Source of the DNA: Candidatus Scalindua sp. | GTDB taxonomy: Bacteria; Planctomycetota; Brocadiia; Brocadiales; Scalinduaceae | DNA length: 32,000 bases | Assembly: GCA_031316235.1 (NCBI GenBank) | Contig: JALDRA010000002.1 | Span: 60,001-92,000 of the forward strand | Direction of reading: 5' to 3' | In this document: positions 3,936 to 31,467 of the stretch, piece by piece | Position numbering within the stretch: the stretch's first letter is position 1 | Layout: the number at the start of each line of letters is the position of its first letter | Program-made: the position numbers and the translations under genes | Notes under the pieces: generated by a model | Seen by the model: only the letters and a program-made list of their open reading frames with translations | Told to the model about the DNA's origin: nothing | Database searches by the model: none

Positions 3936-3963
3936 TACGAAAAATCACCTCCATCACCGTGGT

Positions 3964-4105
3964 TATGCTAAAGGACCGATTTGGTTTTAGATTTTTCTAG
4001 AGAACCAAACTGGATGCAGTTATCCCCCGGGCAAAAAGCGCCGAGGACTTTACTCGCTCAGCTTTTTTCTCTGATTTATCCGAAAATTATTATAAGATGA
4101 GTATA
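3964..4105 (+). repeat. TATAC-element copy A (long form, 5' terminus degenerate), in the dnaJ-grpE intergenic region
   Basis: Aligns over its whole length to copies at 14268, 15601(rc), 22501(rc), 25923 and 30066. Shared blocks are GGTTTTAGATTTTTCTA, TATCCCCCGGGCAAAAAGCGCCGAGGACTTTACTC and ATTATAAGATGAGTATA. Confidence 0.85.
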
Positions 4106-4116
4106 GCTCAGGTTAT

Positions 4117-13860: not shown

Positions 13861-13867
13861 AGAGGGA

Positions 13868-13951
13868 TATACTAAAACCAGAGCCTGGTTAATGGTAGAC
13901 TCGCTCAATTTTTTCCCGATTTTGTCCGAAATCCAGTATGAGATGAGTATA
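13868..13951 (+). repeat. TATAC-element copy K (84 bp, central module deleted)
   Basis: TATACTAAAACCAGAGCCTGGTTAATGGTA is joined directly to GACTCGCTCAATTTTTTCCCGATTTTGTCCGAAATCCAGTATGAGATGAGTATA. Both termini and the flanking modules are retained. Confidence 0.8.
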
Positions 13952-14163: not shown

Positions 14164-14267
14164 GCAGTGTTTGAACGATAACTACCCATTCTGCGGCGTT
14201 GCTGCAATAATGGCGTAATCCTCACGTACCTGAGTACGCTCCGGTTACGTAATTATTTCGGACCTTG

Positions 14268-14437
14268 TATACTAAAACCGATCTGGTTTTCGGTTTTACC
14301 CGTCCCCGCCAGAATGAGTATCACCTGCCGGAAATCAAATCCTGGTGAAGGTATCCCCGAACAAAAAGCGTGCCGGGGACTTTACCCACTCAGTTTTTTT
14401 CCGGATTTTATCCGAAAACCATCATACGATGAGTATG
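14268..14437 (+). repeat. TATAC-element copy B (170 bp, carries a 44-bp internal replacement)
   Basis: Termini are TATACTAAAACCGATCTGGTTTTCGGTTTT and GGTATCCCCGAACAAAAAGCGTGCCGGGGACTTTACCC...CCGAAAACCATCATACGATGAGTAT. The segment 14298-14341 is not found in other copies. Confidence 0.85.
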
Positions 14438-14632
14438 TATGAAAGAGGAACATCCCGATTCTTTCCTGAATTTATCTGTTGGTTCTCCTGCTCGAATTTT
14501 CGCTTGACTTTTACACTAATTTATGTACATTTACTCCACATCGCCAAAAAAACACAGGATTAACGAGTTTTATCGATTGTTACTTTATCGCCTGTGTGTA
14601 CATACCACATGTGTTTTTCATAATTTTCAAAT

Positions 14633-15600: not shown

Positions 15601-15738
15601 ATACTCATCTCATGCTGGATTTCGGAAAAAATCCGAAAAAAAACGGAGCGGGGAAAGTCCTCGACGTCTTGTCCGGGGATACCACTAACAAGACTTTGGT
15701 TTTTAGAAAAATCTAAAAAACAGATCGGTTTTCGTATA
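15601..15738 (-). repeat. TATAC-element copy C (long form), between the ABC ATPase and permease genes
   Basis: The reverse complement reads TATACGAAAACCGATCTGTTTTTTAGATTTTTCTAAAAACCAAAGTCTTGTTAGTGGTATCCCCGGACAAGACGTCGAGGACTTTCCCC...CCGAAATCCAGCATGAGATGAGTAT. Confidence 0.85.
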
Positions 15739-17919: not shown

Positions 17920-20291
17920 TAAACATGCTTCAAAAACGGAAGCTCTTTTACGCGGTTTTGATTTTCTTTGTTATGGCATTCACAGCGCAGGGACTCTTAC
18001 ATGCTGCCTCTGCAAAGGAGTATTCAAAGAGGTTGGACCAAATGCAGCAGAACGTAACAAAAGAGGCCTCCAAAACCGACAGTGCCGGGTCAAAGTCAGC
18101 GGAGGGTGAATCCGGTTCAATCCCCCTGTTATGGTGGTTCGCACCGTTTGGAGCTCTTTGCGCATTATTTTTTGTACGTAAATTTTACAAAGAAGTGATG
18201 GCTTTCCCTGAAGGCGACAAGAAAATGGTTGAAATAGCCGGGCATGTTCGCGATGGTGCCTATGCCTATCTCAAGCAGCAATACAAGGTTGTCTTCATAT
18301 TTTTTGTATTTGTGTTCATTTTGCTGTTATTTATATCCTACGGATTAAAAGTTCAGTCTACGTTTGTACCATTTGCCTTTCTTACAAGTGGCTTTTTCTC
18401 AGGTCTTGCAGGTTTCCTGGGAATGAAAATCGCCACAAACGCAAGTTCGAGGACTACTGAAGGAGCAAAACAGTCATTGGATTTAGGCCTTCGAATAGCT
18501 TTCCGGAGTGGAGCCGTAATGGGTCTCATCGTTGTGGGTCTGGCCCTTTTAGACGTGTCCGTATGGTTCTACATACTTCGTCAATTTACCGACATTACCC
18601 TTACCGAAATGGCAGTAATACTCCCCTGCTTTGGAATGGGTGCCAGTTTACAGGCTCTTTTTGCCAGGGTAGGTGGCGGTATCTTTACAAAGGCTGCCGA
18701 TGTTGGAGCTGACCTTGTGGGTAAGGTCGAAGCCAACATCCCGGAAGATGATCCAAGGAATCCGGCAACCATTGCTGACAATGTGGGAGACAATGTAGGA
18801 GACGTAGCCGGAATGGGTGCGGATCTGTATGAATCATATTATGCCTCAATTTTAGCCAGTGCAGCACTGGGCGTCGCCTGTGGCCTCGGTATTGCGGGCC
18901 TTGTGTTGCCAATGTGTCTTGCGGGAATAGGCATTATCTTATCTATTTTGGGCATCCGGGTCATAAAAACAAAAGAGGGTGCATCACAAAAGGAGCTCTT
19001 GAAATCATTAGGAAAAGGGGTAAACTTGAGCTCGATCCTGATCCTGGTCACTTCTGCAATTATCATAAAGTTTTTGCTTCCCGGCCACTTCGGCATTTGG
19101 GGTTCGATTGCCACGGGTTTGGTTGCCGGAATCATAATAGGAAAGGGTACAGAATATTTTACTTCAGCGGACCATGGCCCTACAAAAACTATTGCAAGTC
19201 ATGCGAAAACCGGTGCTGCAACCCTCATCATTGATGGGGTAGCTACCGGAATGTTATCTACTGTTATTCCTGTAAGTGCAATCGCAATTGCTATTATTTT
19301 GAGTTTTGCATTTGCAGGTGGCTTTTCAGATACGGCAATGGGGCTTTATGGAATCGGTGTTGCTGCAGTTGGAATGTTGTCAACACTTGGAATAACCTTG
19401 GCAACTGACGCCTACGGCCCTATTGCTGACAATGCCGGTGGTAATGCCGAGATGAGCGAACAGGAACCGATTGTAAGAAAAAGAACTGACGCACTCGATT
19501 CACTGGGAAACACTACTGCTGCTACCGGAAAAGGGTTCGCGATTGGATCTGCTGCTCTTACTGCGATGGCACTCCTGGCAATATATGTTGAAGAGGTAAA
19601 AATAGGGCTTGAACGAACAGGTTTACACGTAGTTGAGATTGCGGGACGTACCATAGACACCGCTTCTCTTCAGATAGGTGACCTGATGAATTACTATAAT
19701 GTCACCCTCATGAATCCCAAGGTACTCGTCGGTCTCTTTCTCGGGGCAATGATATCATTTACCTTTTGTGCCCTGACAATGAAAGCTGTCGGCAGGGCTG
19801 CAGGAAAGATGGTAGAAGAGGTAAGAAGGCAGTTCAGAGAAATACCGGGAATTATGGACGGCTCGGGAAAGCCCGATTATGCTGCATGCGTTGCCATAAG
19901 CACAAAGGGTGCACAAAGAGAAATGATGATTCCCGCTCTCCTGGCCATGGTTTTCCCGATCGTTGTTGGCTTGATCCTGGGGGTAGCCGGGGTCATGGGT
20001 TTGTTAGCAGGCGGTTTAACAACAGGATTCCTCCTGGCTGTGTTCATGTCAAACGCTGGCGGTGCCTGGGACAATGCAAAGAAATATATTGAAACCGGGC
20101 AATTCGGCGGAAAAGGGTCAGAGGCACACAAAGCTTCTGTAGTTGGTGATACGGTTGGAGACCCTTTTAAGGATACATCAGGCCCCTCTTTAAACATCCT
20201 TATCAAGTTGATGGCTATGGTATCCGTAGTATTTGCAGGTTTAATAGTCAAGTTTTCACCAAAGATTGGTGCTTTACTCCATATTAATTAA
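17916..20291 (+). CDS. hppA: Membrane-bound ion-translocating pyrophosphatase (K+-dependent type) with an N-terminal extension of about 75 aa
   Basis: 791 aa with many TM helices. Signature motifs are GGGIFTKAADVGADLVGKVE, DNVGDNVGD, GNTTAATGKGFAIGSAAL and GDTVGDPFKDTSGPSLN. The Ala in GNTTA (codon 19518-19520) marks the K+-dependent subfamily. Confidence 0.95.
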   Translation: MINMLQKRKLFYAVLIFFVMAFTAQGLLHAASAKEYSKRLDQMQQNVTKEASKTDSAGSKSAEGESGSIPLLWWFAPFGALCALFFVRKFYKEVMAFPEGDKKMVEIAGHVRDGAYAYLKQQYKVVFIFFVFVFILLLFISYGLKVQSTFVPFAFLTSGFFSGLAGFLGMKIATNASSRTTEGAKQSLDLGLRIAFRSGAVMGLIVVGLALLDVSVWFYILRQFTDITLTEMAVILPCFGMGASLQALFARVGGGIFTKAADVGADLVGKVEANIPEDDPRNPATIADNVGDNVGDVAGMGADLYESYYASILASAALGVACGLGIAGLVLPMCLAGIGIILSILGIRVIKTKEGASQKELLKSLGKGVNLSSILILVTSAIIIKFLLPGHFGIWGSIATGLVAGIIIGKGTEYFTSADHGPTKTIASHAKTGAATLIIDGVATGMLSTVIPVSAIAIAIILSFAFAGGFSDTAMGLYGIGVAAVGMLSTLGITLATDAYGPIADNAGGNAEMSEQEPIVRKRTDALDSLGNTTAATGKGFAIGSAALTAMALLAIYVEEVKIGLERTGLHVVEIAGRTIDTASLQIGDLMNYYNVTLMNPKVLVGLFLGAMISFTFCALTMKAVGRAAGKMVEEVRRQFREIPGIMDGSGKPDYAACVAISTKGAQREMMIPALLAMVFPIVVGLILGVAGVMGLLAGGLTTGFLLAVFMSNAGGAWDNAKKYIETGQFGGKGSEAHKASVVGDTVGDPFKDTSGPSLNILIKLMAMVSVVFAGLIVKFSPKIGALLHIN

Positions 20292-20358
20292 GTAATGTAC
20301 AGAAACAGAAGTTCTTGTTTTTTTATTTATTATCAGGTGCTGTCTGCACACTATTACC

Positions 20359-20610
20359 ATGGACGATGAATCAATTAAATTAACCAATGATGTACCATGT
20401 CCCAATTCAGACTGTCGATATGATCATCATTCAGAAGGTGCTAACTTCTGCATGCTTTGCGGCACCTTGCTCTATCAGAGGTGCGGAGACTGTCTGTCGG
20501 CAAACCCTCAATATGCGAAGTTCTGCTACTATTGCGGTACAAGTTTGTTAGAACTCAGGGAAATGCAGGAGCATGATGAAGAAAGAGACGATGAGGATGA
20601 TGACGTGTAG
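20359..20610 (+). CDS. Double zinc-ribbon domain protein with an acidic tail
   Basis: 83 aa. Cys pairs run CPNSDC...CMLC...CGDC...CYYC, and the tail is a DEERDDEDDDV type. Confidence 0.65.
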   Translation: MDDESIKLTNDVPCPNSDCRYDHHSEGANFCMLCGTLLYQRCGDCLSANPQYAKFCYYCGTSLLELREMQEHDEERDDEDDDV

Positions 20611-20640
20611 TCCTCTCGTCAGAAATAACTGTTTTATTAA

Positions 20641-20684
20641 CGCTGTCTGGTTCGACTAATTTTCATAGTGCGGACCAGACAGCG
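20641..20684. other. Perfect 11-bp inverted repeat (CGCTGTCTGGT / ACCAGACAGCG) with a 22-nt loop
   Basis: Read directly from the sequence. It lies 31 nt after the zinc-ribbon gene stop, and no U-run follows. The only canonical in-frame start of rsfS (GTG 20668) sits in its loop. Confidence 0.6.
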
Positions 20685-21120
20685 CAACAATCGCACTATT
20701 TCCAGCAATTTACCCTGTTTATTCGTCATTGGCCAATGTGCTGGGGATACGATATTTTTAACAATCAGGAGACTCCATACGTTAGATTCGAAAGATATAG
20801 CAATCACGTGTGCCAAAATTGCTGATCAAAAAAAGGCACAGAACATCATTGTACTCGATGTAAGCAAATTAACCTTTTTCACAAGATATTTTGTCATCTG
20901 TACGGGCATTAACCAGAGACAGCTTCATGCCATATCTGATGAAATGGCAAAAGAACTGAAGAAACTCTCGGTTGAAAAGCTGAGTAGTGAAGGTTATCGG
21001 GAAGCAAAATGGATACTGCTGGACTTTGGTGATGTTGTGGTACATCTATTTGGAAAAGAAGAGCGGAACTACTACGAGTTAGAACTGCTCTGGGGAGACG
21101 CACCCAGGATTGAGTGGTAA
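20668..21120 (+). CDS. rsfS: Ribosomal silencing factor RsfS (iojap family)
   Basis: KKAQNIIVLDVSKLTFFTRYFVICTGINQRQLHAISDEM...WILLDFGDVVVHLF..E.R.YY.LE.LW is the RsfS core. The first ~35 aa of the longest ORF look non-homologous, so the true start is uncertain. Confidence 0.8.
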   Translation: MRTRQRNNRTISSNLPCLFVIGQCAGDTIFLTIRRLHTLDSKDIAITCAKIADQKKAQNIIVLDVSKLTFFTRYFVICTGINQRQLHAISDEMAKELKKLSVEKLSSEGYREAKWILLDFGDVVVHLFGKEERNYYELELLWGDAPRIEW

Positions 21121-21320
21121 AACAATACCCTCTCCACCAACACTCCATTCACATTCTTTCGCAGATTAAACAGATTTCACAGATAATGAATGCAGATTGA
21201 AGAGTGCAGAGTGAAACAGCGAATAAAAATAGTCCTAAACAATGTTTACTACAAACTTAAACATTTTTAAACTTAATCCATGTGTTTGCATGTTTGACCT
21301 TTGACCTTTCAGTTTTTAGC

Positions 21321-21474
21321 TTATCAGCTATGAGCCCTGAACCTCTGAACCTTGAACCCAGAACCTCTAAACGCTTAACCCTGAACCCAGTACCCAGAAC
21401 CTCTGAACCCGGAACCCTGAACCTCTGAACCTCTGAACCCTGAACCCTGAACCCTGAACCTCTAAACGCTTACC
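21321..21474 (+). repeat. Degenerate heptanucleotide tandem array (CCCTGAA / CCTCTGAA / CCCAGAA units, about 20 units)
   Basis: Read directly from the sequence, for example CCCTGAA CCTCTGAA CCTTGAA CCCAGAA CCTCTAAA CGCTTAA CCCTGAA. It contains the motif CCTCTAAACGCTTA twice, and the same motif occurs in the 25.8-kb array. Confidence 0.9.
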
Positions 21475-21501
21475 TATTAAGGTGCCAAGAGAGAAGGGCT
21501 T

Positions 21502-22158
21502 TCAGCTACCCAGATTCTGCTTATTCTTCAGCAGTTTTTCACATATTTTACAAAAGTCAGAACCTTTTTTATCCGTATCATCCAGAGTACTTGAAAAAAA
21601 CATTACGCAATAGTCATTCCCACAGTGACGCAACCCATACGTGTGCCCAAGTTCGTGGACTGATTCTGTAATCACCCTTTGATTAAACAGAGTGATATCT
21701 GCAGGTAAATTATAGAACTCCTGTCGCAACCTGGTTAAGGAAATTATCGAAACCCGATTTTTTAAATCTGCTTCCCCAAAGACAAAGGTAAGTTCAGGTA
21801 CATACAGATCAACATCGACAACCCCTAAAACTCTCCCATAGTCAACCAGTTCCAATTCTTCCAATTTTTTGAGAATTTTAGTTGAGCAGTACTGTTTTCG
21901 TCTCTTATGGTAGGCATAATCGAGATCATGAGACAAGATAAAGATATCGACTTTTTCATTGAGCACGTCTTCAAGTATCACCTTCGCATAAAGCATGATT
22001 CGTTTATCTATAGTACCTATCTGCACCATGCATATTTTTTTTCTCATCTCTTTTTTCCTGGCATAACTTGTTTCTATAAATATAACCCCTGCCAAAAGTA
22101 AACATATAAACACAACGAAAATCCTGCTTGAATATCTCATGGTAAAATTCATTAACAT
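21502..22158 (-). CDS. Archaemetzincin-like zinc metalloprotease (peptidase M54 type)
   Basis: HELGHTYGLRHCGNDYCVMFFSSTLDDTDKKGSDFCKIC fits the archaemetzincin signature HExxHxxGx3Cx4CxM...CxxC. The longest ORF adds an N-terminal hydrophobic segment, and an alternative start is at Met38 (ATG 22047). Confidence 0.8.
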   Translation of the reverse strand: MLMNFTMRYSSRIFVVFICLLLAGVIFIETSYARKKEMRKKICMVQIGTIDKRIMLYAKVILEDVLNEKVDIFILSHDLDYAYHKRRKQYCSTKILKKLEELELVDYGRVLGVVDVDLYVPELTFVFGEADLKNRVSIISLTRLRQEFYNLPADITLFNQRVITESVHELGHTYGLRHCGNDYCVMFFSSTLDDTDKKGSDFCKICEKLLKNKQNLGS

Positions 22159-22234
22159 ACCTGGGGTATGAATCTAAAAACAGAAGCAGAAAAACCTGCC
22201 GATTTACGGATCAAGATCTGGATAAGATAAGTCC

Positions 22235-22258
22235 GGGGCCAGGGGCTGGGGCTGGGTT
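22235..22258 (-). repeat. Short heptamer-type array (reverse strand CCCAGCC CCAGCCC CTGGCCC)
   Basis: GGGGCCAGGGGCTGGGGCTGGG, read directly from the sequence. It abuts the minimal TATAC-element at 22261. Confidence 0.5.
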
Positions 22259-22260
22259 TG

Positions 22261-22289
22261 TATACTCATATTGTAATGGTTTTTGTATA
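22261..22289 (-). repeat. Minimal 29-bp TATAC-element (copy J)
   Basis: The reverse complement is TATACAAAAACCATTACAATATGAGTATA, which is the 5' terminus of the long element fused to its 3' terminus. Confidence 0.8.
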
Positions 22290-22440
22290 TCACGCCACGG
22301 CGCTAAGAACGCAAAGAATAAAAACATTTAAAATCTTTTATACTCAACTTTTTCTCCAAAATAGTAGACGCATCAACCACAACCATGCCTATTTCATTTT
22401 CTGGCGATCTCTGCGGCTTTGCGAGAAGCTATTTTTTTGA
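22290..22440 (-). pseudogene. Decayed remnant of a four-helix-bundle (23S rRNA IVS protein / Avd family) gene
   Basis: The reverse complement aligns with 25533-25650 (ATCAAAAAA..TCTCGCAAAGCCGCAGAGATCGC....GGTTGTGGTTGATG.GTCTA.T.TTT). It then jumps to the TTTGCGTTCTT.GCG...GGCGTGATATAC block that lies at 25896-25927 in the longer copy. Confidence 0.55.
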
Positions 22441-22500
22441 TATAAAACAATTCAAGCAAACCCCTGCACTGAAATTCCAAAAACCATTTTGCAATGGGTA

Positions 22501-22640
22501 TATACTCATCTCATAATGGTTTTCGGATAAAATCCGAGATAAAATTGAGCGGGTACAAGTCCTCGACACTTTTTGTCCGGGGATACCTTCACCAAGATCT
22601 GGTTTCCAGCAAAACCGAAAACCAGATCGGTTTTAGTATA
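22501..22640 (-). repeat. TATAC-element copy D (long form, subfamily 2)
   Basis: The reverse complement is TATACTAAAACCGATCTGGTTTTCGGTTTTGCTGGAAACCAGATCTTGGTGAAGGTATCCCCGGACAAAAAGTGTCGAGGACTTGTACCC...TCGGATTTTATCCGAAAACCATTATGAGATGAGTATA. Confidence 0.9.
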
Positions 22641-22689
22641 CCTGAGGATAAGGGAATTATTACCGGAAAGCCCAGGCACGTATTTCCGT

Positions 22690-22914
22690 TCAAGTACTCT
22701 TAATACCGGTGCCATGTGACTTGATTATTTCAATTGCCTGCGATTTAGTAAATCCCTCATTGCGCAATGATGAATAAAAATTATACATAAGTTTTGCAAG
22801 GATATCCTGTAAGTCACTGCACTGGGGGAGTATCTTTTTCAAAAAAGCGAGACCTTGTTCTACCTCAATTTGTTCCATTAAATGATCCAGATTGTCCTCT
22901 CTTTTGTATTCCAT
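22690..22914 (-). CDS. Small hypothetical protein (74 aa)
   Basis: ORF only, predicted helical. No family recognised and no clear ribosome-binding site examined. Confidence 0.35.
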   Translation of the reverse strand: MEYKREDNLDHLMEQIEVEQGLAFLKKILPQCSDLQDILAKLMYNFYSSLRNEGFTKSQAIEIIKSHGTGIKST

Positions 22915-23240
22915 GGATTATACTACCTCATAAATAAATGACCTTAATTACTATCCTTCACAGAGTTCTTCACCAAAGGCAGATGCTGCAGAGCCATCAA
23001 GCCTGATGGCTACATCTTGTATGTCAAATGATAGAACTATACTATATTTACCCAATAAGTCAAGGTTTTTTTATCTCTCCTTAAGACACCGGGGAATATA
23101 TGTTTCAGGAAATTTTGGGGAATTATTACAAACAAAACCAGTAGTGTCCACTCTGCAAGAGACCGGCATAAAAATTTATCCAAATATATTTTCTAAAAGA
23201 GACGAGATAGCGTATAATACTGATCTTAAAAAATTATTCT

Positions 23241-24470
23241 ATGACTATCGGTTGCAGCACAATGAAATACGATTTCGATCGTCTGATCTCACGGAAAAAC
23301 ACGGGCTGTATGAAGTGGGACGGTGCAAAGGCTCTCTTTGGTAATACGGATGTCATTCCAATGTGGGTAGCCGATATGGATATTCCTATTGCTCATCCCA
23401 TCACCGAAGCAATGAAAGAGAGAGTGGAACACAACATCTTTGGTTATCCGGTGCATCATCCTGAATCTGTCATGGAATCCATTATATATAGAATGCAGAA
23501 ATTGTACAGTTGGCAGATTCTGCCGGAATGGATTGTTTTTACACCCGGTATTATCCCGGCACTCTACACCTCGGTTCGGGCTTTTTCTCGCCCGGGAGAT
23601 GACGTTATTCTTCAGGGGCCAGTTTATCACCCCTTCTGGTCAGCCATCAGGGATAATGGGTGCCATGTATCTGAGAACCGTCTCTTACTCAATGATTCAC
23701 ACTATGAAATTGATTTTGATGATCTGAAAACCAAGTTTGGTACAAGAAGCGGCAGGCCCTCCGCACCTTCACGTGCACGTTTACTGATTTTATGTAGTCC
23801 ACACAACCCGGTAGGTCGGGTATGGACCGAAGAGGAGCTGACAAAGATCGGAGAAATTATCACAGGAAACGGAGCAATCATAGTTTCAGATGAAGTACAC
23901 AGTGAACTTCTCTTTCGTGATGCCAGACATACGCCGATTGCTTCATTATCTGAGGAATTTGAGCAAAATTCCATTACGTGCATTTCTCCAAGCAAGACCT
24001 TCAACCTTGCCGGATTATATGCATCAGCCATAATTATTCCTAACGCCAGATATCGCAGGAAATTCCAAGAGGCCCGCAAAGGGATTGTACCGGGACCGAA
24101 TGTATTCGGATTAACAGCAATGGAGGCCGCGTATAAACATGGAGACGAATGGCTGGAACAATTATTGGTATATCTGAACAGTAATCTGGAATATTTACTC
24201 GACTATTTTGAGAGGAGAATCCCTGCAATAAGGGTTATCAAACCAGAGGGGACCTACCTGGTATGGTTAGATTGCCGTAAACTGGGATTCGTCCCCGAAG
24301 ACCTGAAAAAATTCCTGACAAATGATGCAGAAGTTGGCCTTGATGAAGGCTCCCTTTTCGGACCAGGTGGTGCCGGTTTTGCGAGGATGAATATTGCCTG
24401 CCCCCGTTCAATTTTGACAGAAGCATTGAAGAGGTTAGAGTCTGCGGTTACTAGACTGAAACCATTATAA
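23241..24470 (+). CDS. PatB/MalY-type PLP-dependent C-S lyase (class I/II aminotransferase fold)
   Basis: MKYDFDRLISRKNTGCMKWDG is the typical N-terminus. Other matches are SPHNPVGRVW and the PLP-lysine region SPSKTFNLAG. The start may be ATG 23262 rather than 23241. Confidence 0.85.
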   Translation: MTIGCSTMKYDFDRLISRKNTGCMKWDGAKALFGNTDVIPMWVADMDIPIAHPITEAMKERVEHNIFGYPVHHPESVMESIIYRMQKLYSWQILPEWIVFTPGIIPALYTSVRAFSRPGDDVILQGPVYHPFWSAIRDNGCHVSENRLLLNDSHYEIDFDDLKTKFGTRSGRPSAPSRARLLILCSPHNPVGRVWTEEELTKIGEIITGNGAIIVSDEVHSELLFRDARHTPIASLSEEFEQNSITCISPSKTFNLAGLYASAIIIPNARYRRKFQEARKGIVPGPNVFGLTAMEAAYKHGDEWLEQLLVYLNSNLEYLLDYFERRIPAIRVIKPEGTYLVWLDCRKLGFVPEDLKKFLTNDAEVGLDEGSLFGPGGAGFARMNIACPRSILTEALKRLESAVTRLKPL

Positions 24471-24480
24471 GATGAGTATA
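24459..24480 (+). repeat. Solo 3' terminus of a TATAC-element, overlapping the C-S lyase stop codon
   Basis: AAACCATTATAAGATGAGTATA is identical to the 3' end of the copies at 4084-4105 and 26012-26033. The TAA at 24468-24470 is the gene's stop codon. Confidence 0.7.
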
Positions 24481-24530
24481 ACCACAGCCTGAGCTGCAGG
24501 GTATGATAAAATAGGGCCGGATACAAAAAA

Positions 24531-24556
24531 AAGCCGGCATACTCTCATGCCGGCTT
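24531..24556 (-). terminator. Rho-independent terminator between convergent genes
   Basis: A perfect 10-bp stem AAGCCGGCAT / ATGCCGGCTT with a 6-nt loop. An A8 run lies upstream on the plus strand, giving a U-run after the hairpin for the minus-strand FKBP gene. Confidence 0.8.
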
Positions 24557-24611
24557 TAATTTGAAATTAAAATAATGCTCCTTTTTTTCTCTTACAGACC
24601 CCCCCTGCTCA

Positions 24612-25346
24612 TCAGGGAGTTTCTGTTTCTTCAGGTGTTATAATGTCAAGCAGTTCAACCGTAAAAATCAACGTCTGACTGGGACCAATGCTTGGCGGGG
24701 CATTGACTCCATAAGCCAGTTCAGAGGGAATATAAAGCTCACTTTTACCCCCGACCTTCATAAGCTGTAACCCTTCTATCCACCCTTTGATAACCTGGTT
24801 TAATCCAAATTCTGCAGGTTGATTACGCTTGTATGAGCTGTCAAACTCCTTTCCATTAATCAACGTACCCCGATAATGAACCTTGACGACATCTGTCTCT
24901 TTCGGACTGGCACCTTTTCCCTCCGTTATGACTTTGTACTGCAGACCAGAATCGGTGACCTTGACTCCTGATTTCTTCTTGTTGGTTTCAAGAAAAGCTT
25001 GTCCCAGTCTGGTGTTTTCATCACTTGCCGCCTTTTGTGCTGCCTGGGCTTTCTCTGTTGCCTCCTCTTGAAAAGCTGTCATGACAGACTCTATCTCTTC
25101 CTGCGACATTGCCAACTCGTTTCCCTTTACGATATCATTCAACCCTTTTAGAAACAGATCTTCACTTACTTCCAGCTCATTCTGTTTACAGAAACCACCG
25201 ATCTGAGTACCGATGATATAGCTCATTTTTTGAGACTCCGACCACTTGGCCGAGGCACTTGCAGGTGCAGCCTCATCTTCTGCAACAACAAAACCCGATA
25301 AAATAAACACCATTGAGGCTGAAAGTAACATAATTTTTCGTATCAC
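24612..25346 (-). CDS. FKBP-type peptidyl-prolyl cis-trans isomerase (FkpA/Mip-like, secreted)
   Basis: Signal peptide, an FKBP_N-like helical domain, then the FKBP core VHYRGTLINGKEFDSS...F.L..VI.GW.EGLQLMKVGGK..L.IP..LAYG. GTG start with AAGGAG upstream. Confidence 0.9.
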   Translation of the reverse strand: MIRKIMLLSASMVFILSGFVVAEDEAAPASASAKWSESQKMSYIIGTQIGGFCKQNELEVSEDLFLKGLNDIVKGNELAMSQEEIESVMTAFQEEATEKAQAAQKAASDENTRLGQAFLETNKKKSGVKVTDSGLQYKVITEGKGASPKETDVVKVHYRGTLINGKEFDSSYKRNQPAEFGLNQVIKGWIEGLQLMKVGGKSELYIPSELAYGVNAPPSIGPSQTLIFTVELLDIITPEETETP

Positions 25347-25500
25347 AGTACACTCCTTATGCAGATAATTTTTTAAAATGTAATCGGAATCTCTCTTGCT
25401 CCGAATATACGATTAGAACACATTATTACAATATTTCAATAATTATTTCAGATGTTCATAAATCTCGCGACTTAATATGCCAGGAACAATTAAATCCTTG

Positions 25501-25529
25501 TATACGAAAACCATTATCTGATGAGTATA
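25501..25529 (+). repeat. Minimal 29-bp TATAC-element (copy H)
   Basis: TATACGAAAACCATTATCTGATGAGTATA, flanked by G and C to give GTATAC palindromes at both ends. Confidence 0.8.
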
Positions 25530-25532
25530 CAT

Positions 25533-25753
25533 CAAAAAAGAGTCTCTCGCAAAGCCGCAGAGATCGCAAGGAAGAATGAATGAAAATGAAACAGGCAGGG
25601 TTGTGGTTGATGAGTCTATTGTTTCATATAATATTTTACAAAAAGAATTGGATCTCCAATTCAAAGCTTAATGATTTACGAATAGTAGGAGATACAATAG
25701 GTAAACAACTTTCAAGTCTCATAAATTCAATAAAGAAAACAATTACGAAATAA
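25533..25753 (+). pseudogene. 5'-truncated, frameshifted remnant of a four-helix-bundle (23S rRNA IVS protein / Avd family) gene
   Basis: The frames read IKKESLAKPQRSQGRMNENETGRVVVDESIVSYNILQKELDLQFKA, then (shifted) LNDLRIVGDTIGKQLSSLINSIKKTITK followed by a stop. The last 9 codons match the end of the ORF at 30991-31215 (AATTCAATAAAGAAAACAAT[T/C]ACGAAATAA, one synonymous difference). Confidence 0.55.
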
Positions 25754-25884
25754 CCCTGAACCATCAGCCATGAGCTATGAGCTATGAGCCATCAGCCATA
25801 AGCCATGAACCATCAGCCATCAACCCTGAACCTCTGAACTCAGAACCTTTGAACCTCTAAACGCTTAACCATGAACCATCAGCC
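25754..25884 (+). repeat. Degenerate heptanucleotide tandem array (CCATCAG / CCATGAG / CTATGAG / CCCTGAA units)
   Basis: Read directly from the sequence. It starts immediately after the pseudogene stop codon and contains CCTCTAAACGCTTAA, as the 21.4-kb array does. Confidence 0.9.
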
Positions 25885-25922
25885 GCATTTATTTGCTTTG
25901 CGTTCTTCGCGTCTTGGCGTGA

Positions 25923-26033
25923 TATACTAAAAACCAAAGCCCGGCTGCTGGTATCCCCGGACCAGGCACCGAGGACTTTACTCTCTCCGTTTCTCCTCGG
26001 ATTTGGTCCGAAAACCATTATAAGATGAGTATA
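25923..26033 (+). repeat. TATAC-element copy E (111 bp, first hairpin module absent)
   Basis: TATACTAAAAACCAAAGCCCGGCTGCTGGTATCCCCGGACCAGGCACCGAGGACTTTACTC...TCGGATTTGGTCCGAAAACCATTATAAGATGAGTATA. Confidence 0.9.
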
Positions 26034-26144
26034 CTACCCGGATACAAGGCAAGTAACAATTTCATATCTGAAATACACCCATGTACCTGAAGACTGCTGG
26101 GTAATTACAGGAACGCAGTAAATGGATAGTTTTCGTTACACTTA

Positions 26145-29100
26145 CTAATTAGCGTCATATAGCACTTCATTAGAATAACCACTTTCATTACCGGAACTGT
26201 TATAAGCAGTTACTGCAAGGTAATACGTTACGCCGCTTACAAGATCAGACAAGTCATATGTCGTTTGATTACCCACATCAATAATATCGTCATAATTGCT
26301 GCTTGAAATCCCATAGTATACTTTATAACCAGCAATGTCTTCCTCCGTGTTTTCATCCCAGGCAAGTATATCTGAATTCGTATCTAATACCGTTATCGTT
26401 ACATCCTGATAATCGGTTAATTCACCATCACTGACAGTGACTGTGACGGTATGGCCACCGGCGTCTTGAGCAGTTGTTGTGTAAGCACTTGAAGTCATCC
26501 AGCCGGAATAGGTATATGTCAGCGGATCATCATCCGGATCTGAGGCTGTGGGATTAAGGGTTATGGTCACTCCTTCGTTTACTACAATAGAGGGTATTGC
26601 GTCAAGTACCGGAGCACGATTTATGTTAGTAACCGTTACTGTAACAGACTGAGAATCCGATGCTGAACCGTCACTGACCGTTACCGTTACGGTATGATCA
26701 CCCGCATCATTATAAGAGGTCGTGTAACTTGCAGAAGTCATCCACCCGGAATAGCTGAATGCCAGCGCATCGCCATCAGGATCTGTTGCCGTAGGATTAA
26801 AGGTCACCGTATCACCCTCATTCACCGTGATATTGGTTAATGGATCCAGCACAGGCGCATTGTTCAATCCAGCCTCTTCCTGCTCTACTATTACAACGGT
26901 ATACATGCTCTTCCCGGCACCTTCATTACCACCCAGTGTAATCGTCCCTGAAATCACATTACTCGCATATAAGCTTAAGGTTGTATCCGTTGTTACAAGG
27001 TCTTCACCTATGTCAGTATAGGAGGATTCCAACCAGGATGGTTTCGGAGTTATGCGGTCATCATGAGCAACATACACGATAACGTCCTTATTGACATCAA
27101 AACTCAAAAATGATGAAGAGCTGGAGGCCTTGTCGTTGTTTGCCGTCTTGATGTAGGTGACACCTTCCATCCATACGGGTATTGCACTATAGGTATATCC
27201 ACGGTCAATGTATACCAATCCACCCTTCTGTAATCCATTTTCAACGATCTCATAGGCCTGGTTACTTGAGACAGTAAGGTTGGTAACAGATAGATCTGGT
27301 TCTGGTGTTATGTCCACATTGTTGACCGTTACCGTAACAGACTGAGAATCTGATGCTGCTCCGTCGCTGACGGTTACTGTTACGATATGATCCCCCGCAT
27401 CATCATAAGAGGTGCCATAACTTGCAGAGGTCATCCACCCGGAATAACTGAAGGTCAATGGGTCTCCGTCTGGATCGCTGGCTGTCGGGGCAAGAGTTAC
27501 CGTATCACCCTCATTTACCGTAACAGCCGTAAGATGGGCAAGTACCGGTGCCTGGTTAACATTGTTGACCGTTACCGTAACAGACTGGGTATCTGATGCT
27601 GTCCCGTCACTGACCGTTACCGTCACCGCATGATCACCCGCATCATTATAAGAGGTCGTGTAACTTGCAGAAGTCATCCACCCGGAATAGCTGAAGGTCA
27701 ATGGGTCTCCGTCTGGATCGCTGGCTGTCGGGGTAAGGGTTACCGTATCACCTTCATTAACCGTGATACCAGCTATATGATCCAATAGAGGAGCGGCATT
27801 CACATGAGCCATAACGTCAACTACCGTTATTGTTACGTCCTGAGAATCGATTGAAGCACCATCACTTACGGTTACTGTTACTGTGTGAGTTCCTGCATCG
27901 TTATAATTAGTTGTATAGCTCCTTGAAGTCATCCAGCCGGAATAACTGAAGGTCAAAGCGTCTCCATCTGGATCAGCAGCTGTAGGGGTAAGGGTTACCG
28001 TATCACCTTCTTCAACAATTACAACATTTTCCAGATCCTGTGCAACAAAAGATACTTCACCAGAGTAAATACTTTCATTACCTGATGAATCGTATGCGGT
28101 CACTGCCGCATAATAGGTTTCACCACTTATGAGACCAGAAAAGAGACAGTATGTCTGAATTCCAACATCAGTATGAGAACCATAATTTCCGCTTGCAGTC
28201 CCATAGTAAACTTTATAACCGGCAAGATCCTCTTCATTGTTAGGATCCCAAAACAATGTACCTTGAATATCTCCGCCAGTTCCAGAAATCGGATTGAGAA
28301 CAGGTGCACGATTAACATTATTCACCGTTATCGTAACAACCTGGGAATCTGATGCTGTCCCGTCACTGACCGTTACTGTCACAGTATGATCACCCGCATC
28401 ATCATAAGAGGTCGTGTAACTTGCAGAGGTCATCCACCCGGAATAGCTGAAGGTCAGGGTGTCTCCGTCTGCATCCGTTGCTGTCGGGGCAAGGGTCACC
28501 GTATCTCCCTCATTTACCATAACAGGCGAGAGAGTGGAAAGTACCGGTGCCTGGTTAACATTATTCACCGTTATCGTAACAACCTGGGTATCTGATGCTG
28601 TACCGTCACTGACTGTTACGGTCACAGCGTGATCACCCGCATCATCATGAGTTGTTGTGTAACTTGCAGAGGTCATCCACCCGGAATAGCTGAAGGTCAG
28701 GGTGTCTCCGTCTGCATCCGTTGCTGTCGGGGCAAGGGTCACCGTATCTCCCTCATTTACCGTAATCCCACTTAATGGATCCAGCACGGGTGCATTGTTC
28801 ACTTCCGCCACTTCCTGCCCTACTATTACGAAGGTATACATGCTCTTCCCGGAACCTTCATTACCACCAAGAGTAATGGTTCCTGAAATCACATTACTCG
28901 CATATAAGCTTAAGGTTGTATCCGTTGTTACAAGGTTTTCACCTATGTCGGTAAAGGAGGATTTCAACCAGGATGGTTTCGGAGTTATGCGGTCATCATG
29001 AGCAACATACACGATAACATCCTTATTGACATCAAAACTCAAAAATGATGAAGAGTTTGAAGATTTGTCGTTGTTTGCCGTATTGATGTAGGTGGCACCT

Positions 29101-29891
29101 TCCAGCCATACCGGTATTGCACTATAGGTATATCCACGGTCAATGTATACCAATCCACCATTCTGTAATCCATTTTCAACGATTTTATAGGCCTTGTTAC
29201 TTGAGACAGTAAGGTTGGTAACAGAAACATTTGGCACTGGCGTGATGTCCGCATCATTAACCGTTATCGTTATACTTTCCGAATCTGTCTCTTTACTGTC
29301 ACTTACGTGAAAGGTTACATTAGAATATGTTCCTGCCTGACTATAGGTTGGCGTCCATGAAAATGTTCTGCTGTTTTCATCAAAGCTCGCACCACTGGGG
29401 AGATTGCTTGCCGTATAAGCAAGTGTATCTCCTTCTGGATCTGTAGCGGAAATAATCAAGTTTAATGCCTGGTTTTCATTAACAGTTTTATTGCCGATCG
29501 CTGTTAATACCGGGGGAGAGTTAACTGATGTCAGATCGTTATAAACCACCTCATTAGAGTAAGTGCTTTCATTACCGGAGAAATCGTATGCCGTTACTGC
29601 CAGATAATAATCATTCCCGTCTCCAAGACCCGTAAGTGTGTAACTGGTCTGATTACCAACATCTTCATGAGAATTATAATTCCCACTTGACGTTCCGTAG
29701 TGTACTTTATAACCGGCAAGGTCATCTTCACTGTTTGGGTCCCATAATAACATATCAGCTTGCGCCGAACACAAATTGGATGTATTGATCAAAATCGCAA
29801 GGGTTAGTACGACAAAGGATATGATAGTGGAAATGGAGCAACGAAAATGGAGTGTTCTTGCAAGTTGCGATAAGACATTTTTTTGTGACAT
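26145..29891 (-). CDS. Large secreted repeat protein: 3 FN3-like modules, 8 cadherin-like/He_PIG-type Ig modules, and 2 copies of a ~150-aa uncharacterised beta-sandwich-like module
   Basis: 1248 aa with an N-terminal signal-like segment. FN3 pattern: WDPN.E.DLAGYKV.YG...YY.AVTAYD.SGNES.YS.EV. Cadherin-like pattern: VNEGDTVTL.PTA.D.DGD.LTFSYSGWMTS.SYTT...DAGDH.VTVTVSDG. No recognisable C-terminal anchor. Confidence 0.9.
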   Translation of the reverse strand: MSQKNVLSQLARTLHFRCSISTIISFVVLTLAILINTSNLCSAQADMLLWDPNSEDDLAGYKVHYGTSSGNYNSHEDVGNQTSYTLTGLGDGNDYYLAVTAYDFSGNESTYSNEVVYNDLTSVNSPPVLTAIGNKTVNENQALNLIISATDPEGDTLAYTASNLPSGASFDENSRTFSWTPTYSQAGTYSNVTFHVSDSKETDSESITITVNDADITPVPNVSVTNLTVSSNKAYKIVENGLQNGGLVYIDRGYTYSAIPVWLEGATYINTANNDKSSNSSSFLSFDVNKDVIVYVAHDDRITPKPSWLKSSFTDIGENLVTTDTTLSLYASNVISGTITLGGNEGSGKSMYTFVIVGQEVAEVNNAPVLDPLSGITVNEGDTVTLAPTATDADGDTLTFSYSGWMTSASYTTTHDDAGDHAVTVTVSDGTASDTQVVTITVNNVNQAPVLSTLSPVMVNEGDTVTLAPTATDADGDTLTFSYSGWMTSASYTTSYDDAGDHTVTVTVSDGTASDSQVVTITVNNVNRAPVLNPISGTGGDIQGTLFWDPNNEEDLAGYKVYYGTASGNYGSHTDVGIQTYCLFSGLISGETYYAAVTAYDSSGNESIYSGEVSFVAQDLENVVIVEEGDTVTLTPTAADPDGDALTFSYSGWMTSRSYTTNYNDAGTHTVTVTVSDGASIDSQDVTITVVDVMAHVNAAPLLDHIAGITVNEGDTVTLTPTASDPDGDPLTFSYSGWMTSASYTTSYNDAGDHAVTVTVSDGTASDTQSVTVTVNNVNQAPVLAHLTAVTVNEGDTVTLAPTASDPDGDPLTFSYSGWMTSASYGTSYDDAGDHIVTVTVSDGAASDSQSVTVTVNNVDITPEPDLSVTNLTVSSNQAYEIVENGLQKGGLVYIDRGYTYSAIPVWMEGVTYIKTANNDKASSSSSFLSFDVNKDVIVYVAHDDRITPKPSWLESSYTDIGEDLVTTDTTLSLYASNVISGTITLGGNEGAGKSMYTVVIVEQEEAGLNNAPVLDPLTNITVNEGDTVTFNPTATDPDGDALAFSYSGWMTSASYTTSYNDAGDHTVTVTVSDGSASDSQSVTVTVTNINRAPVLDAIPSIVVNEGVTITLNPTASDPDDDPLTYTYSGWMTSSAYTTTAQDAGGHTVTVTVSDGELTDYQDVTITVLDTNSDILAWDENTEEDIAGYKVYYGISSSNYDDIIDVGNQTTYDLSDLVSGVTYYLAVTAYNSSGNESGYSNEVLYDAN

Positions 29892-30065: not shown

Positions 30066-30206
30066 TATACTAACACCAATCTGGTTTTAGATTTTTCTAA
30101 AAACCAAAGCCTGGTTAATGGTATCCCCGGACAACCAGGTGCCGAGGACTTTACTCATTCCGTTTTTTCTCGGATTTTATTTGAAATCCATTATATGACG
30201 AGTATA
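30066..30206 (+). repeat. TATAC-element copy F (141 bp, best-preserved subfamily-1 copy)
   Basis: TATACTAACACCAATCTGGTTTTAGATTTTTCTAAAAACCAAAGCCTGGTTAATGGTATCCCCGGACAACCAGGTGCCGAGGACTTTACTCATTCCGTTTTTTCTCGGATTTTATTTGAAATCCATTATATGACGAGTATA. Confidence 0.9.
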
Positions 30207-30726
30207 AATTCGTTTTCATGTCTCGTAGCATAAGTTGTTAACGTTACGCAAATGTAATGCCTCAACAAAACTTACCGTGACAAGTATATAATTGTTCTTG
30301 AAGAGATACCGTGTGGTGGAACAAAGACTTTCCAGATACAAGGCGCGTAATAATTTGATAACCTGAAGTTAATCATGTGCTTGAGGATACTGGAATTAAT
30401 AACGCAGCGCAGTAAATGGATCCTTTTCGTTCAAGCACTATAGAAAACAGCTGATCAAATAAACATTTTAACAGCACATTTATTTGTTACTAAATATAGA
30501 GGGTAAGTTGATTTTATAAACACCATGATGCTTTATTAGTTATTGCCGCTTGGTTTTTGTCTTATAGCGGTAAGAAAATATTTAATGCTTAAAAACTTTG
30601 GTTACCTGGTATTATCGTGACAATCCCAAAAATCATTAGCAAGAAAATAACAAACTTCAAGATCAAAGAGTTCAGCAGTTAACGGATGTTGAAGGATTCA
30701 GGATAGAGTTGAATGCTCACAGGATG

Positions 30727-30755
30727 TGTACGAAAACCATTATCCGATGAGTATA
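30727..30755 (+). repeat. Minimal 29-bp TATAC-element (copy I)
   Basis: TGTACGAAAACCATTATCCGATGAGTATA, differing from copy H at only 2 positions. Confidence 0.75.
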
Positions 30756-30950
30756 AAACTCACAATGACATGATTTGTTTCGATATACCCATTGTGAATT
30801 ACACCGGTAAAAAATAAGTTTTGGGAAAAACTCAATTGCTGGTGCGGGCAGAGTGGTAAACCAGAGACGTCCCTTCAAACTCTATAGCAGCCGGTAACAC
30901 AGTCCGTTTTATCAGAAAAATTTAAAAACATTCATTCGCAGATTACACAG

Positions 30951-30990
30951 AGCTCATGGTTGATAGCTCATAGTTCATAGCTGATGGTTA
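30951..30990 (-). repeat. Heptamer array in inverted orientation, abutting the start of the four-helix-bundle ORF
   Basis: The reverse complement reads CCATCAT TAACCAT CAGCTAT GAACTAT GAGCTAT CAACCAT GAGCT, the same unit family as 25754-25884 and 31216-31350. Confidence 0.75.
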
Positions 30991-31215
30991 ATGATGGAGA
31001 AAATGTGTGAAACAAAGTTTAGTTTTGAAGATTTAGATGTCTGGCAAAAATCTATAGATTTTGCAGTGAGTGTTATTGGCATTGCAGATACAATGAATTC
31101 TGATCGCAATCATTATAGATTGATAGAACAATTAGAATCATCCCCAACATCAATTTCAGCAAATATTGCTGAAGGTAAATGGCGTAATTCAATAAAGAAA
31201 ACAATCACGAAATAA
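30991..31215 (+). CDS. Truncated four-helix-bundle protein (23S rRNA intervening-sequence protein / DGR Avd family), an in-frame internal deletion derivative
   Basis: FSFEDLDVWQKSIDF...HYRLIEQLESSPTSISANIAEGKWRNS matches the family pattern F.DL.VWQK......Y.L..Q..R...SI..NIAEG..R.S. A typical family member runs about 115-125 aa, whereas this ORF has 74 aa and jumps directly to the C-terminal IKKTITK. Confidence 0.7.
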   Translation: MMEKMCETKFSFEDLDVWQKSIDFAVSVIGIADTMNSDRNHYRLIEQLESSPTSISANIAEGKWRNSIKKTITK

Positions 31216-31350
31216 TTATCAACCATCAGCCATCAACCATAAACTTCTGAAGGCTGAACGCTTAAACATAAACCATAAACCATGAGCCCTGAGCCATCAG
31301 CCATCAGCCATCAGCCATGAACCATGAGCTTTAATCTTTGAGCCTTTGGC
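31216..31350 (+). repeat. Degenerate heptanucleotide tandem array immediately after the four-helix-bundle ORF
   Basis: TTATCAA CCATCAG CCATCAA CCATAAA ... CCATGAG CCCTGAG CCATCAG CCATCAG CCATCAG CCATGAA CCATGAG, read directly from the sequence. Confidence 0.9.
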
Positions 31351-31404
31351 TTTGTTTGTTTTTATACTTTTTAGATTTGACCCATTGCCCTTTCAGCCTT
31401 TAAC

Positions 31405-31467
31405 TATGCCATGAGCTATGATCCATCAGCCATCAGCCATGAACCATCAGCCATGAACCATGAACCA
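31405..31467 (+). repeat. Second downstream heptamer array
   Basis: CCATGAG CTATGAT CCATCAG CCATCAG CCATGAA CCATCAG CCATGAA CCATGAA. It is preceded by TTTGACC...CCTTTCAG, the same leader seen before the 21.3-kb array. Confidence 0.85.

Follow-up and report, generated by a model that had tools for sequence, protein, structure and literature searches.

A truncated four-helix-bundle gene amid independent repeat families in a Candidatus Scalindua spacer, and the inverted heptamer arms around its relatives

We analyzed a 32-kb stretch of a Candidatus Scalindua genome, referred to here as the window, and focused on positions 25500-26034, which lie in the 799-bp spacer between an FKBP isomerase gene and an adhesin gene. 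These positions hold the 3' end of a gene of the four-helix-bundle family (4HB; PF05635 / TIGR02436), a heptamer array, the two parts of a short sequence that we call the block unit, and two copies, one of them minimal, of the TATAC element, a lineage-specific, hairpin-rich repeat of 110-175 bp. An original prediction had read this order as a composite selfish cassette, bracketed by TATAC elements, with the 4HB gene as its cargo, and all six pieces that it had listed are present where it had placed them. The window was compared with L004, an ENA contig from a sister strain, which is syntenic with window positions 18293-27767 at an identity of 93-97% and encodes an intact 129-aa relative of the 4HB protein (P0002). 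The comparison set also held 80 GTDB loci with related 4HB genes (L005-L084), Scalindua-like loci (L085-L096) and loci with TATAC elements or insertion sequences (IS; L102-L113), and numbered 113 loci altogether. The pieces of the stretch are as follows, arrays having been located with Tandem Repeats Finder (TRF).

25500-25530, + strand: minimal TATAC element of 31 bp, GTATAC-GAAAACCATTATCTGATGA-GTATAC; the same form lies at the orthologous position, L004 7017-7048
25531-25624, + strand: left part of the block unit, with the block CTCGCAAAGCCGCAGAGATCGC (25546-25567) and a short fragment resembling an open reading frame (ORF; MNENETGRVVVDESI); colinear with L004 7050-7143 and with inverted 22359-22437 (I12, I14)
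25631-25753, + strand: 3' remnant of the 4HB gene (PF05635), the last 40 codons (25631-25750) and the stop codon TAA (25751-25753), from DNA alignment and BLAST
25752-25884, + strand: 3' heptamer arm of the CCATSAG / CTGAACC type, about 18 units (TRF), beginning at the stop codon
25892-25922, + strand: right block of the block unit, TTTGCTTTGCGTTCTTCGCGTCTTGGCGTGA (TTTGCTTTGCG...CTTGGCGTGA), adjoining the next TATAC element; inverted copy at 22292-22320 (I13)
25923-26033, + strand: TATAC element of 111 bp, a short form without the first hairpin (nhmmer E 4e-31)

The gene remnant had been described as the frameshifted C-terminal two-thirds of a 4HB gene. We observed instead the last 40 codons and the stop codon, or 31% of the gene, in a single unshifted frame: the translation of 25631-25750 is identical to residues 90-129 of P0002, and from 25631 through the stop the DNA matches the L004 gene at 100% identity. 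The remnant is too short for the PF05635/TIGR02436 hidden Markov models. Nor does the pseudogene start at the border of the TATAC element, as had been proposed, given that 25531-25624 is colinear with L004 7050-7143 and unrelated to 4HB; this segment had no match in Pfam or NCBIfam and is not four-helix-bundle sequence. Its counterpart in L004 is separated from the downstream 4HB start codon by 2.9 kb (about 0.4 kb discounting an IS), with another TATAC element between them. The reading IKKE, which had been taken to continue the ...GKWRNS of the ORF at 31 kb, is a coincidence, the true continuation of ...GKGRNS being KKEFIQYLYIARGSLFETITFLT, while the same site in L004 reads I-E-K-stop. The 31-bp TATAC form is internally deleted: of the full element, it retains the 5' TATAC and the final 25 nt. 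The 12-mer GAAAACCATTAT, allowing at most 2 mismatches, was observed 20 times against 5.8 occurrences expected, and is thus not a product of chance.

The orthologous spacer of L004 holds eleven items, read in the following order.

Items 1-2: minimal TATAC form, then the left block with a short fragment (...MTENEIGRVVVDESI)
Items 3-4: 60 bp of other sequence, then a 112-bp TATAC element
Items 5-6: 2.45-kb IS (DDE_5 ORF), then an upstream region of about 200 bp
Items 7-9: inverted heptamer array, intact 129-codon 4HB gene, heptamer arrays
Items 10-11: right block, then a TATAC element

BLAST placed the breakpoints in the window at 25624 and 25631, with matches to L004 on either side. Since L004 7144-10267 is missing between them, the 25.5-kb stretch, as judged by comparing the two sequences, was derived by deletion from a longer nested spacer. 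Measured on L004, the missing segment amounts to 3.1 kb, and the IS accounts for about 2.45 kb of it. Relative to L004, the window lost the 5' arm, the upstream region, 89 N-terminal codons and one further TATAC element, leaving a copy at 25.6 kb without its 5' arm and without 69% of its ORF. Comparison with a related genome had been proposed as a check on the cassette. L004 holds an intact 4HB gene, its arms, the right block and a TATAC element in the same spacer. That spacer is nested, with an additional TATAC element and the IS, and the 25.5-kb arrangement is not a defined cassette.

The IS of L004 (7340-9791) carries a 687-aa ORF with DDE_5 / DruA matches and stands with a TATAC element on one side and the upstream region of the 4HB gene on the other. 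It is without counterpart at the paralogous window site, 30770-30790.

A second 4HB copy lies at 31 kb in the window, in the spacer beyond the adhesin gene, with the following features.

30066-30206, + strand: full TATAC element in the spacer between the adhesin and 4HB genes (nhmmer E 2e-39)
30727-30757, + strand: minimal TATAC form preceding the second 4HB copy; the corresponding junction of L004 holds a 112-bp element
30951-30989, + strand: 5' heptamer arm of the GCTCATG / GCTGATG type (TRF; I15, I17), ending one base before the start codon
30991-31215, + strand: second 4HB copy, a 74-codon ORF corresponding to residues 1-66 and 123-129 of the intact gene (PF05635 E 1e-13; TIGR02436 E 2e-12)
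31216-31467, + strand: 3' heptamer arm or arms, with arrays at 31218-31330 and 31408-31467 (TRF)

This ORF carries an in-frame deletion of 56 codons at an AATTC microhomology, and the PF05635 and TIGR02436 matches cover its N-terminal half. The 74-codon ORF exactly matches P0001, which is annotated as a 'four helix bundle protein' in a Candidatus Scalindua metagenome-assembled genome, and its 74-aa product is probably non-functional. Window positions 30783-31199 correspond to L004 9790-10207 (94%), and 31315-31467 to L004 10391-10544 (93%). Both 4HB copies of the window are decaying. The next spacer holds a duplicate of a TATAC element and of a remnant of the adhesin 3' flank (26038-26137 against 30332-30431; the whole duplicate spans 30097-30431), and the adhesin gene itself carries 243-bp tandem repeats (27316-27764 and 28312-28765). 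These adhesin-module repeats and the duplicated flank show a history of tandem duplication and deletion. Because the TATAC element and the adhesin 3' flank are duplicated at 30097-30431, a segmental duplication of adhesin modules, not the transposition of a cassette, is the probable origin of the two 4HB copies.

In both L004 and the 31-kb copy, the 4HB gene is enclosed by heptamer arrays of opposite sense. A single base separates the start codon from the end of the upstream array (GCTCATG / GCTGATG type); at the stop codon, the downstream array (CCATGAG / CCATCAG type) sets in. Complementarity between the arms is 81-87% (I15, I17), with I17 spanning 37 nt at 81% in the 31-kb copy, and the array at 25752-25884 is 87% complementary to the 5' arm of that copy (30952-30989; I15). 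When the RNA of L004 9950-10565 was folded, the upstream array paired with the downstream array in both the minimum-free-energy and the centroid structures (positions 10-45 with about 535-607). L004 and the 31-kb copy thus both have terminal inverted repeats that could fold into a long stem, whereas the 25.6-kb remnant keeps the 3' arm only.

The same arrangement is much broader than the Scalindua genome. Among the 80 GTDB loci, which span Bacteroidota, Omnitrophota, Nitrospirota, Planctomycetota, Cyanobacteria, Chloroflexota, Atribacterota, Campylobacterota and others, period-7 arrays were observed on both sides of the 4HB gene at 42, on one side at 26 and on neither at 12, so that 68 of 80 genes are flanked, against a background of 0.28 arrays per kb in the flanks. 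The heptamer sequence varies by genome, and the two arms nevertheless remain reverse complements. We scored flanks as inverted-complementary when the 120-bp upstream flank aligned with the reverse complement of the downstream flank at a Smith-Waterman score of at least 16. This held for 64/91 4HB genes vs 18/602 other ORFs (odds ratio 77, Fisher p 1e-51), and for 4/220 when the test was restricted to small ORFs. As the 4HB loci were picked by protein patterns alone, their flanks did not bias the sample. Examples of 4HB genes with inverted heptamer arms are L064 3995-4381, L066 6016-6369 and L078 5977-6360; the same heptamer arms recur at the Kuenenia-type loci L005 and L015, where the gene neighbourhoods are unrelated and TATAC elements are absent. 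The linkage of the 4HB gene with a heptamer array, one component of the original prediction, is thus much stronger than had been supposed, and gene and arrays together are probably a small selfish unit.

Heptamer arrays also occur in the window without a 4HB gene. Several of them (TGCAGAG, TTTGACC, CTGAACC) lie at 21160-21470. Part of this region is similar to distal sequence in the 3' flank of the 31-kb 4HB copy, and the region may represent a solo arm or else a site that was vacated. One of the arrays is as follows.

21331-21467, + strand: heptamer array of the CTGAACC type (18 copies; TRF), between rsfS and the M54 peptidase gene; no 4HB gene adjoins it

Another Scalindua-type 4HB copy was seen at 4001-4400 in L085-L094, represented by dozens of contigs from Saanich Inlet and other marine metagenomes. 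It is split by a single in-frame stop (97-aa ORF P0018, beyond which the frame continues) and is situated in a cluster of polysaccharide genes among which PDDEXK_3 genes and MNT/HEPN pairs are interspersed.

The prediction had also recognized, at 22261-22640, a second copy of the arrangement, inverted and internally deleted. An inverted paralogue of the bracket is indeed present there.

22259-22641, - strand: inverted paralogue of the bracket (I12-I14, I16, I22)
22499-22641, - strand: its full TATAC element
22292-22437, - strand: its block unit
22259-22290, - strand: its minimal TATAC element

The two blocks, the short ORF-like fragment and the two TATAC elements are all found in this paralogue, in which the left block with its fragment is followed by about 50 bp and then by the right block. 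However, no 4HB sequence was detected within 22259-22641, and no heptamer array between its blocks. The block unit, running from CTCGCAAAG... to ...CTTGGCGTGA, has two inverted copies in the window and was found at only these two places in the 113 loci; it is a separate small unit. The idea that 25550-25620 (MNENETGRVVVD) is a remnant of a PDDEXK_3 / GxxExxY gene was unsupported, as a protein search returned no candidates and neither Pfam nor NCBIfam gave a match at E up to 10; no full-length relative of the fragment was present in 97 loci. A motif related to the right block, CTTTGCGYCTTRGCGTGA, was noticed at L085 519, 1129 and 7537, in spacers of another Scalindua population that adjoin PDDEXK_3 genes, and may be a further repeat family.

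The TATAC elements are independent of the 4HB unit. A profile built from the window copies identified 7 full elements, to which 4 minimal ones add for a total of 11 in 32 kb. The copies outside the regions described above are these.

3963-4106, + strand: TATAC element between grpE and dnaJ
13866-13951 and 14267-14438: TATAC copies
15601-15738, - strand: TATAC copy
24457-24480: right-end fragment of a TATAC element

The elements occupy 7 of the 12 window spacers of at least 100 bp, and therefore it is unremarkable that both spacers with a 4HB gene carry one (chance 21/66 = 0.32, hypergeometric over the 12 window spacers). A co-location of the two above what their densities predict, on which the cassette had been made to depend, is accordingly absent in the window. 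It is also absent elsewhere: the profile found no TATAC element in the 80 GTDB 4HB loci, including the Kuenenia-type L005 and L015 (87-89% identity), nor in the Scalindua-like 4HB loci L085-L096, and the 75 kb of other TATAC-bearing DNA (five JGI contigs and L102-L113) held no 4HB gene and no real heptamer array. L004 has 3 full and 3 minimal copies, and further copies are present in the 5 JGI contigs and in L112. A metagenome scan for the TATAC right end returned 5 contigs. Among the sequences searched, the elements occur only in this Scalindua lineage. The final codons and the stop of the aminotransferase ORF come from the fragment at 24457-24480, which overlaps the 3' end of that ORF, and L004 5977-6000 shows the same overlap.

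In form, the TATAC element comprises three conserved hairpins, and its length variants lack the first hairpin, lack the 29-bp middle hairpin module or are reduced to the 31-bp minimal form. Like MITEs (miniature inverted-repeat transposable elements), it is short and non-coding, with many dispersed copies and length variants. Only the terminal TATAC / GTATA (5-6 bp) are inverted, and a TA or TATA duplication would be indistinguishable from these termini. We rejected two candidate identities. As a structured RNA the element has conserved hairpins, but a compensatory change was seen in only 1 of 25 pairs; Rfam gave no match to it and there was no covariation. For the minimal form, a hammerhead ribozyme (GAAA...CUGAUGAG) was considered, but the CU positions differ between copies and Rfam returned nothing at E up to 1.

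In the contexts of identical or near-identical transposase genes, an IS110-family IS was found at the same middle hairpin of the TATAC element (TCCCCGGAC...GCCGAGGACTT) in at least eight independent copies (L102-L112 among the loci). In L100/L110 (105-1999), a 419-aa IS110-family transposase gene (PF01548 + PF02371) separates the two TATAC halves, and the 3' end of the IS comprises 390 non-coding nt (L110 1609-1999). The IS core is identical among the loci compared and the outer TATAC halves and flanks differ, which favors insertion of the IS into TATAC elements over the IS being their parent; two IS copies (L109, L113) lack the TATAC left half. On the simplest reading of these sequences, the IS lands preferentially in TATAC elements, the alternative being that part of the TATAC element was derived from IS ends. 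Repetitive extragenic palindromic (REP) sequences are landing sites of other IS110 members, such as IS621. TATAC elements resemble REP sequences, bacterial interspersed mosaic elements (BIMEs) and MITE-type repeats in being short, non-coding, hairpin-rich, multi-copy and intergenic, with an IS110-family IS at a fixed middle hairpin. They differ in being longer than REP sequences (110-175 bp), with three hairpins and the termini TATAC...GTATA, and neither a RAYT gene nor another mobilising enzyme was identified for them. As a probable natural and highly repeated IS110 landing pad in anammox bacteria, the element would bear on how RNA-guided IS110 elements choose safe targets.

Taken together, we consider, with a probability of about 80%, that positions 25500-26034 are an overlap of independent repeat families, in which the dead 3' end of a 4HB gene of the intervening sequence (IVS) type is nested in the block unit and the TATAC elements are bystanders. 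In the intact unit, as L004 still has it at this place, a 129-codon 4HB ORF with its ribosome-binding site stands between a 5' heptamer array and, on the 3' side, an array that is the reverse complement of it. In a transcript, the arms would pair into a stem of about 35 bp enclosing the ORF. By analogy with the IVS of 23S rRNA, this stem may be a substrate of RNase III, whose cleavage would release or inactivate the ORF-containing loop. The unit might be a selfish or hitch-hiking insert that takes up positions between genes, moving either through recombination between dispersed arrays or through an RNA-mediated route. The TATAC elements spread on their own.

Several points weigh against this interpretation. 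The order TATAC, block unit, TATAC occurs twice (22.3 kb and 25.5 kb) with a conserved junction, GGCGTGA/TATAC, and hence some linkage between the block unit and the TATAC element exists. The evidence on co-location covers the 12 window spacers and the sampled loci. Insertion of the IS into TATAC elements is only the likelier course, derivation of TATAC from the IS being the alternative, and two IS copies are without the left half. RNase III processing, and any mechanism of 4HB mobility, we infer from the rRNA case. Finally, 4HB genes are co-oriented with their upstream neighbour in 86% and with their downstream neighbour in 74% of cases vs a background of 78%, with no excess. A dependence of the 4HB gene on read-through from its neighbours was discarded on the same count, co-orientation being at the background level.

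The cassette of the original prediction, in which TATAC elements bracket and mobilise the 4HB gene with its heptamer array and the stretches at 25.5 and 22.3 kb are two decayed insertions, draws on the same repeated order: TATAC, block, block, TATAC appears twice in the window in inverted form, both copies are kept in L004, and in both the right block abuts the 5' end of a TATAC element. Nevertheless, one of these two copies, at 22.3 kb, has neither cargo nor array between its blocks, and L004 reveals the other as the deletion product of a nested spacer that had a third TATAC element. The 4HB copy at 31 kb has a different left context and neither a right block nor a TATAC element on its right, and the block sequences occur in no other TATAC-bearing locus. 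Added to the mutual absence of 4HB genes and TATAC elements in the other loci, and to the lack of a target-site duplication around 25500-26034 (flanks ...AATCCTT/GTATAC and GTATAC/TACCCGG...), these observations make such a cassette very improbable. The inverted order could also stem from a segmental inverted duplication whose ends are 22259-22641 and 25500-26034, and which could invert the 2.9-kb aminotransferase-FKBP segment, a 4HB gene having landed in one of the ends. Inverted matches of 84-88% complementarity (I12-I14 and I22) do flank 22641-25500, and other duplication and deletion scars are present in the region, but the orientation in L004 is identical, so that no inversion polymorphism is seen, and the arms are short (segments of 30-45 nt) and diverged. 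We regard this explanation as unlikely.

Another possibility is that the heptamer arrays are independent contingency or regulatory repeats acting on the adhesin genes, for instance by phase variation, and that their proximity to 4HB genes is incidental. The arrays do lie in spacers beside large adhesin genes, and one of these genes stands under a riboswitch for cyclic di-GMP (c-di-GMP); the array at 21331-21467 stands without an adjacent 4HB gene, and the array copy number differs between strains. Against this, the array boundaries follow the 4HB gene, exactly at its stop codon and one base short of its start codon, the arrays on its two sides are reverse complements of each other, and the arrangement recurs around 4HB genes in unrelated neighbourhoods and phyla, which makes an incidental proximity the least credible of the explanations considered. 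An overlap of independent repeats around a dead 4HB unit accordingly remains our preferred reading.

Among the closest known systems is the ORF-bearing IVS of 23S rRNA in Leptospira and Coxiella burnetii, whose protein (S23p / 23S_rRNA_IVP) belongs to the same family, PF05635 / TIGR02436. As in the 4HB unit, its ORF sits inside terminal inverted repeats that form a long stem, with heptamers directly upstream of the start codon, a copy number that varies among strains, and ORFs that are often decaying. In C. burnetii, the S23p ORF is enclosed by a 28-bp inverted-repeat stem cut by RNase III, two or three tandem GACAGAT heptamers precede the start codon, the ORF is decaying, and ORF-bearing IVS have long been suspected of being mobile or selfish (PMC4990558). 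The 4HB unit differs in lying between protein-coding genes rather than in helix 25 or 45 of 23S rRNA (Rfam found no rRNA in the window) and in having longer tandem arrays as arms (5 to 18 heptamers). Genes of the family are also known from rRNA insertions of the candidate phyla radiation (CPR) and have been found wedged in cas operons (PMC3936711).

The label 'IVS/Avd-family' that had been given to the gene holds at the Pfam level, since Avd of diversity-generating retroelements (DGRs) shares the four-helix-bundle fold family with the window genes. It does not extend to a DGR-type Avd, as there is no adjacent reverse transcriptase or template/variable repeat pair: the flanking ORFs, in the window as in L004, contained no RVT domain, and the neighbours are FKBP and adhesin genes and a riboswitch. 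To our knowledge, heptamer arms are not a described feature of DGRs. A further likeness is to the heptamer arrays of cyanobacteria, known as short tandemly repeated repetitive (STRR) sequences, and to the TAACTGA-type arrays of Beggiatoaceae (PMC4679880), which are likewise genome-specific, tandem and intergenic, but differ in sequence from the CCATSAG / CTGAACC heptamers seen here. In the papers found, such arrays are described as dispersed repeats or possible regulator binding sites, and not as inverted arms of 4HB genes. At the cyanobacterial loci L051, L055, L078 and L081, STRR-like arrays form both arms around 4HB genes. In the literature on 4HB genes and heptamer arrays, we found no generalised arm rule beyond one remark on the Coxiella IVS (PMC4990558).

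At the locus itself, the result is a correction: an apparently new composite cassette is the deletion remnant of a known kind of small element, now dead, amid lineage-specific repeats that are present through sheer density. The broader observation is that about 70% of the 4HB/IVS-protein genes sampled, across a wide range of bacterial phyla, carry inverted heptamer arms. This arm rule ties the origin of ORF-bearing rRNA IVS to the meaning of STRR-type heptamer arrays, and predicts RNase III cleavage in the stem. We would extend it further only tentatively, and with more doubt than confidence: 4HB (23S_rRNA_IVP) genes with inverted heptamer arms might form one pan-prokaryotic, IVS-like selfish class, in which rRNA IVS are the special case of landing in rRNA, STRR-type arrays are largely arms or solo remnants, and the Avd-like protein and an RNase III-type stem help the element to propagate or be maintained.

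Within the FKBP-adhesin spacer, promoter and terminator signals were no more numerous than in shuffled sequence. The remaining features around the stretch are the following.

23241-24470: aminotransferase ORF
24612-25346, - strand: FKBP isomerase gene
26145-29891, - strand: adhesin gene with Ig/cadherin/PKD domains, 1248 aa
29947-30035, - strand: c-di-GMP-I riboswitch, directly upstream of the adhesin gene (Rfam, 62 bits, E 4e-10)

In addition to the aminotransferase and the FKBP isomerase, the housekeeping genes of the window include grpE, dnaJ, two groEL genes, a PAS histidine kinase, an ABC transporter, an H+-pyrophosphatase, rsfS and the M54 peptidase gene.

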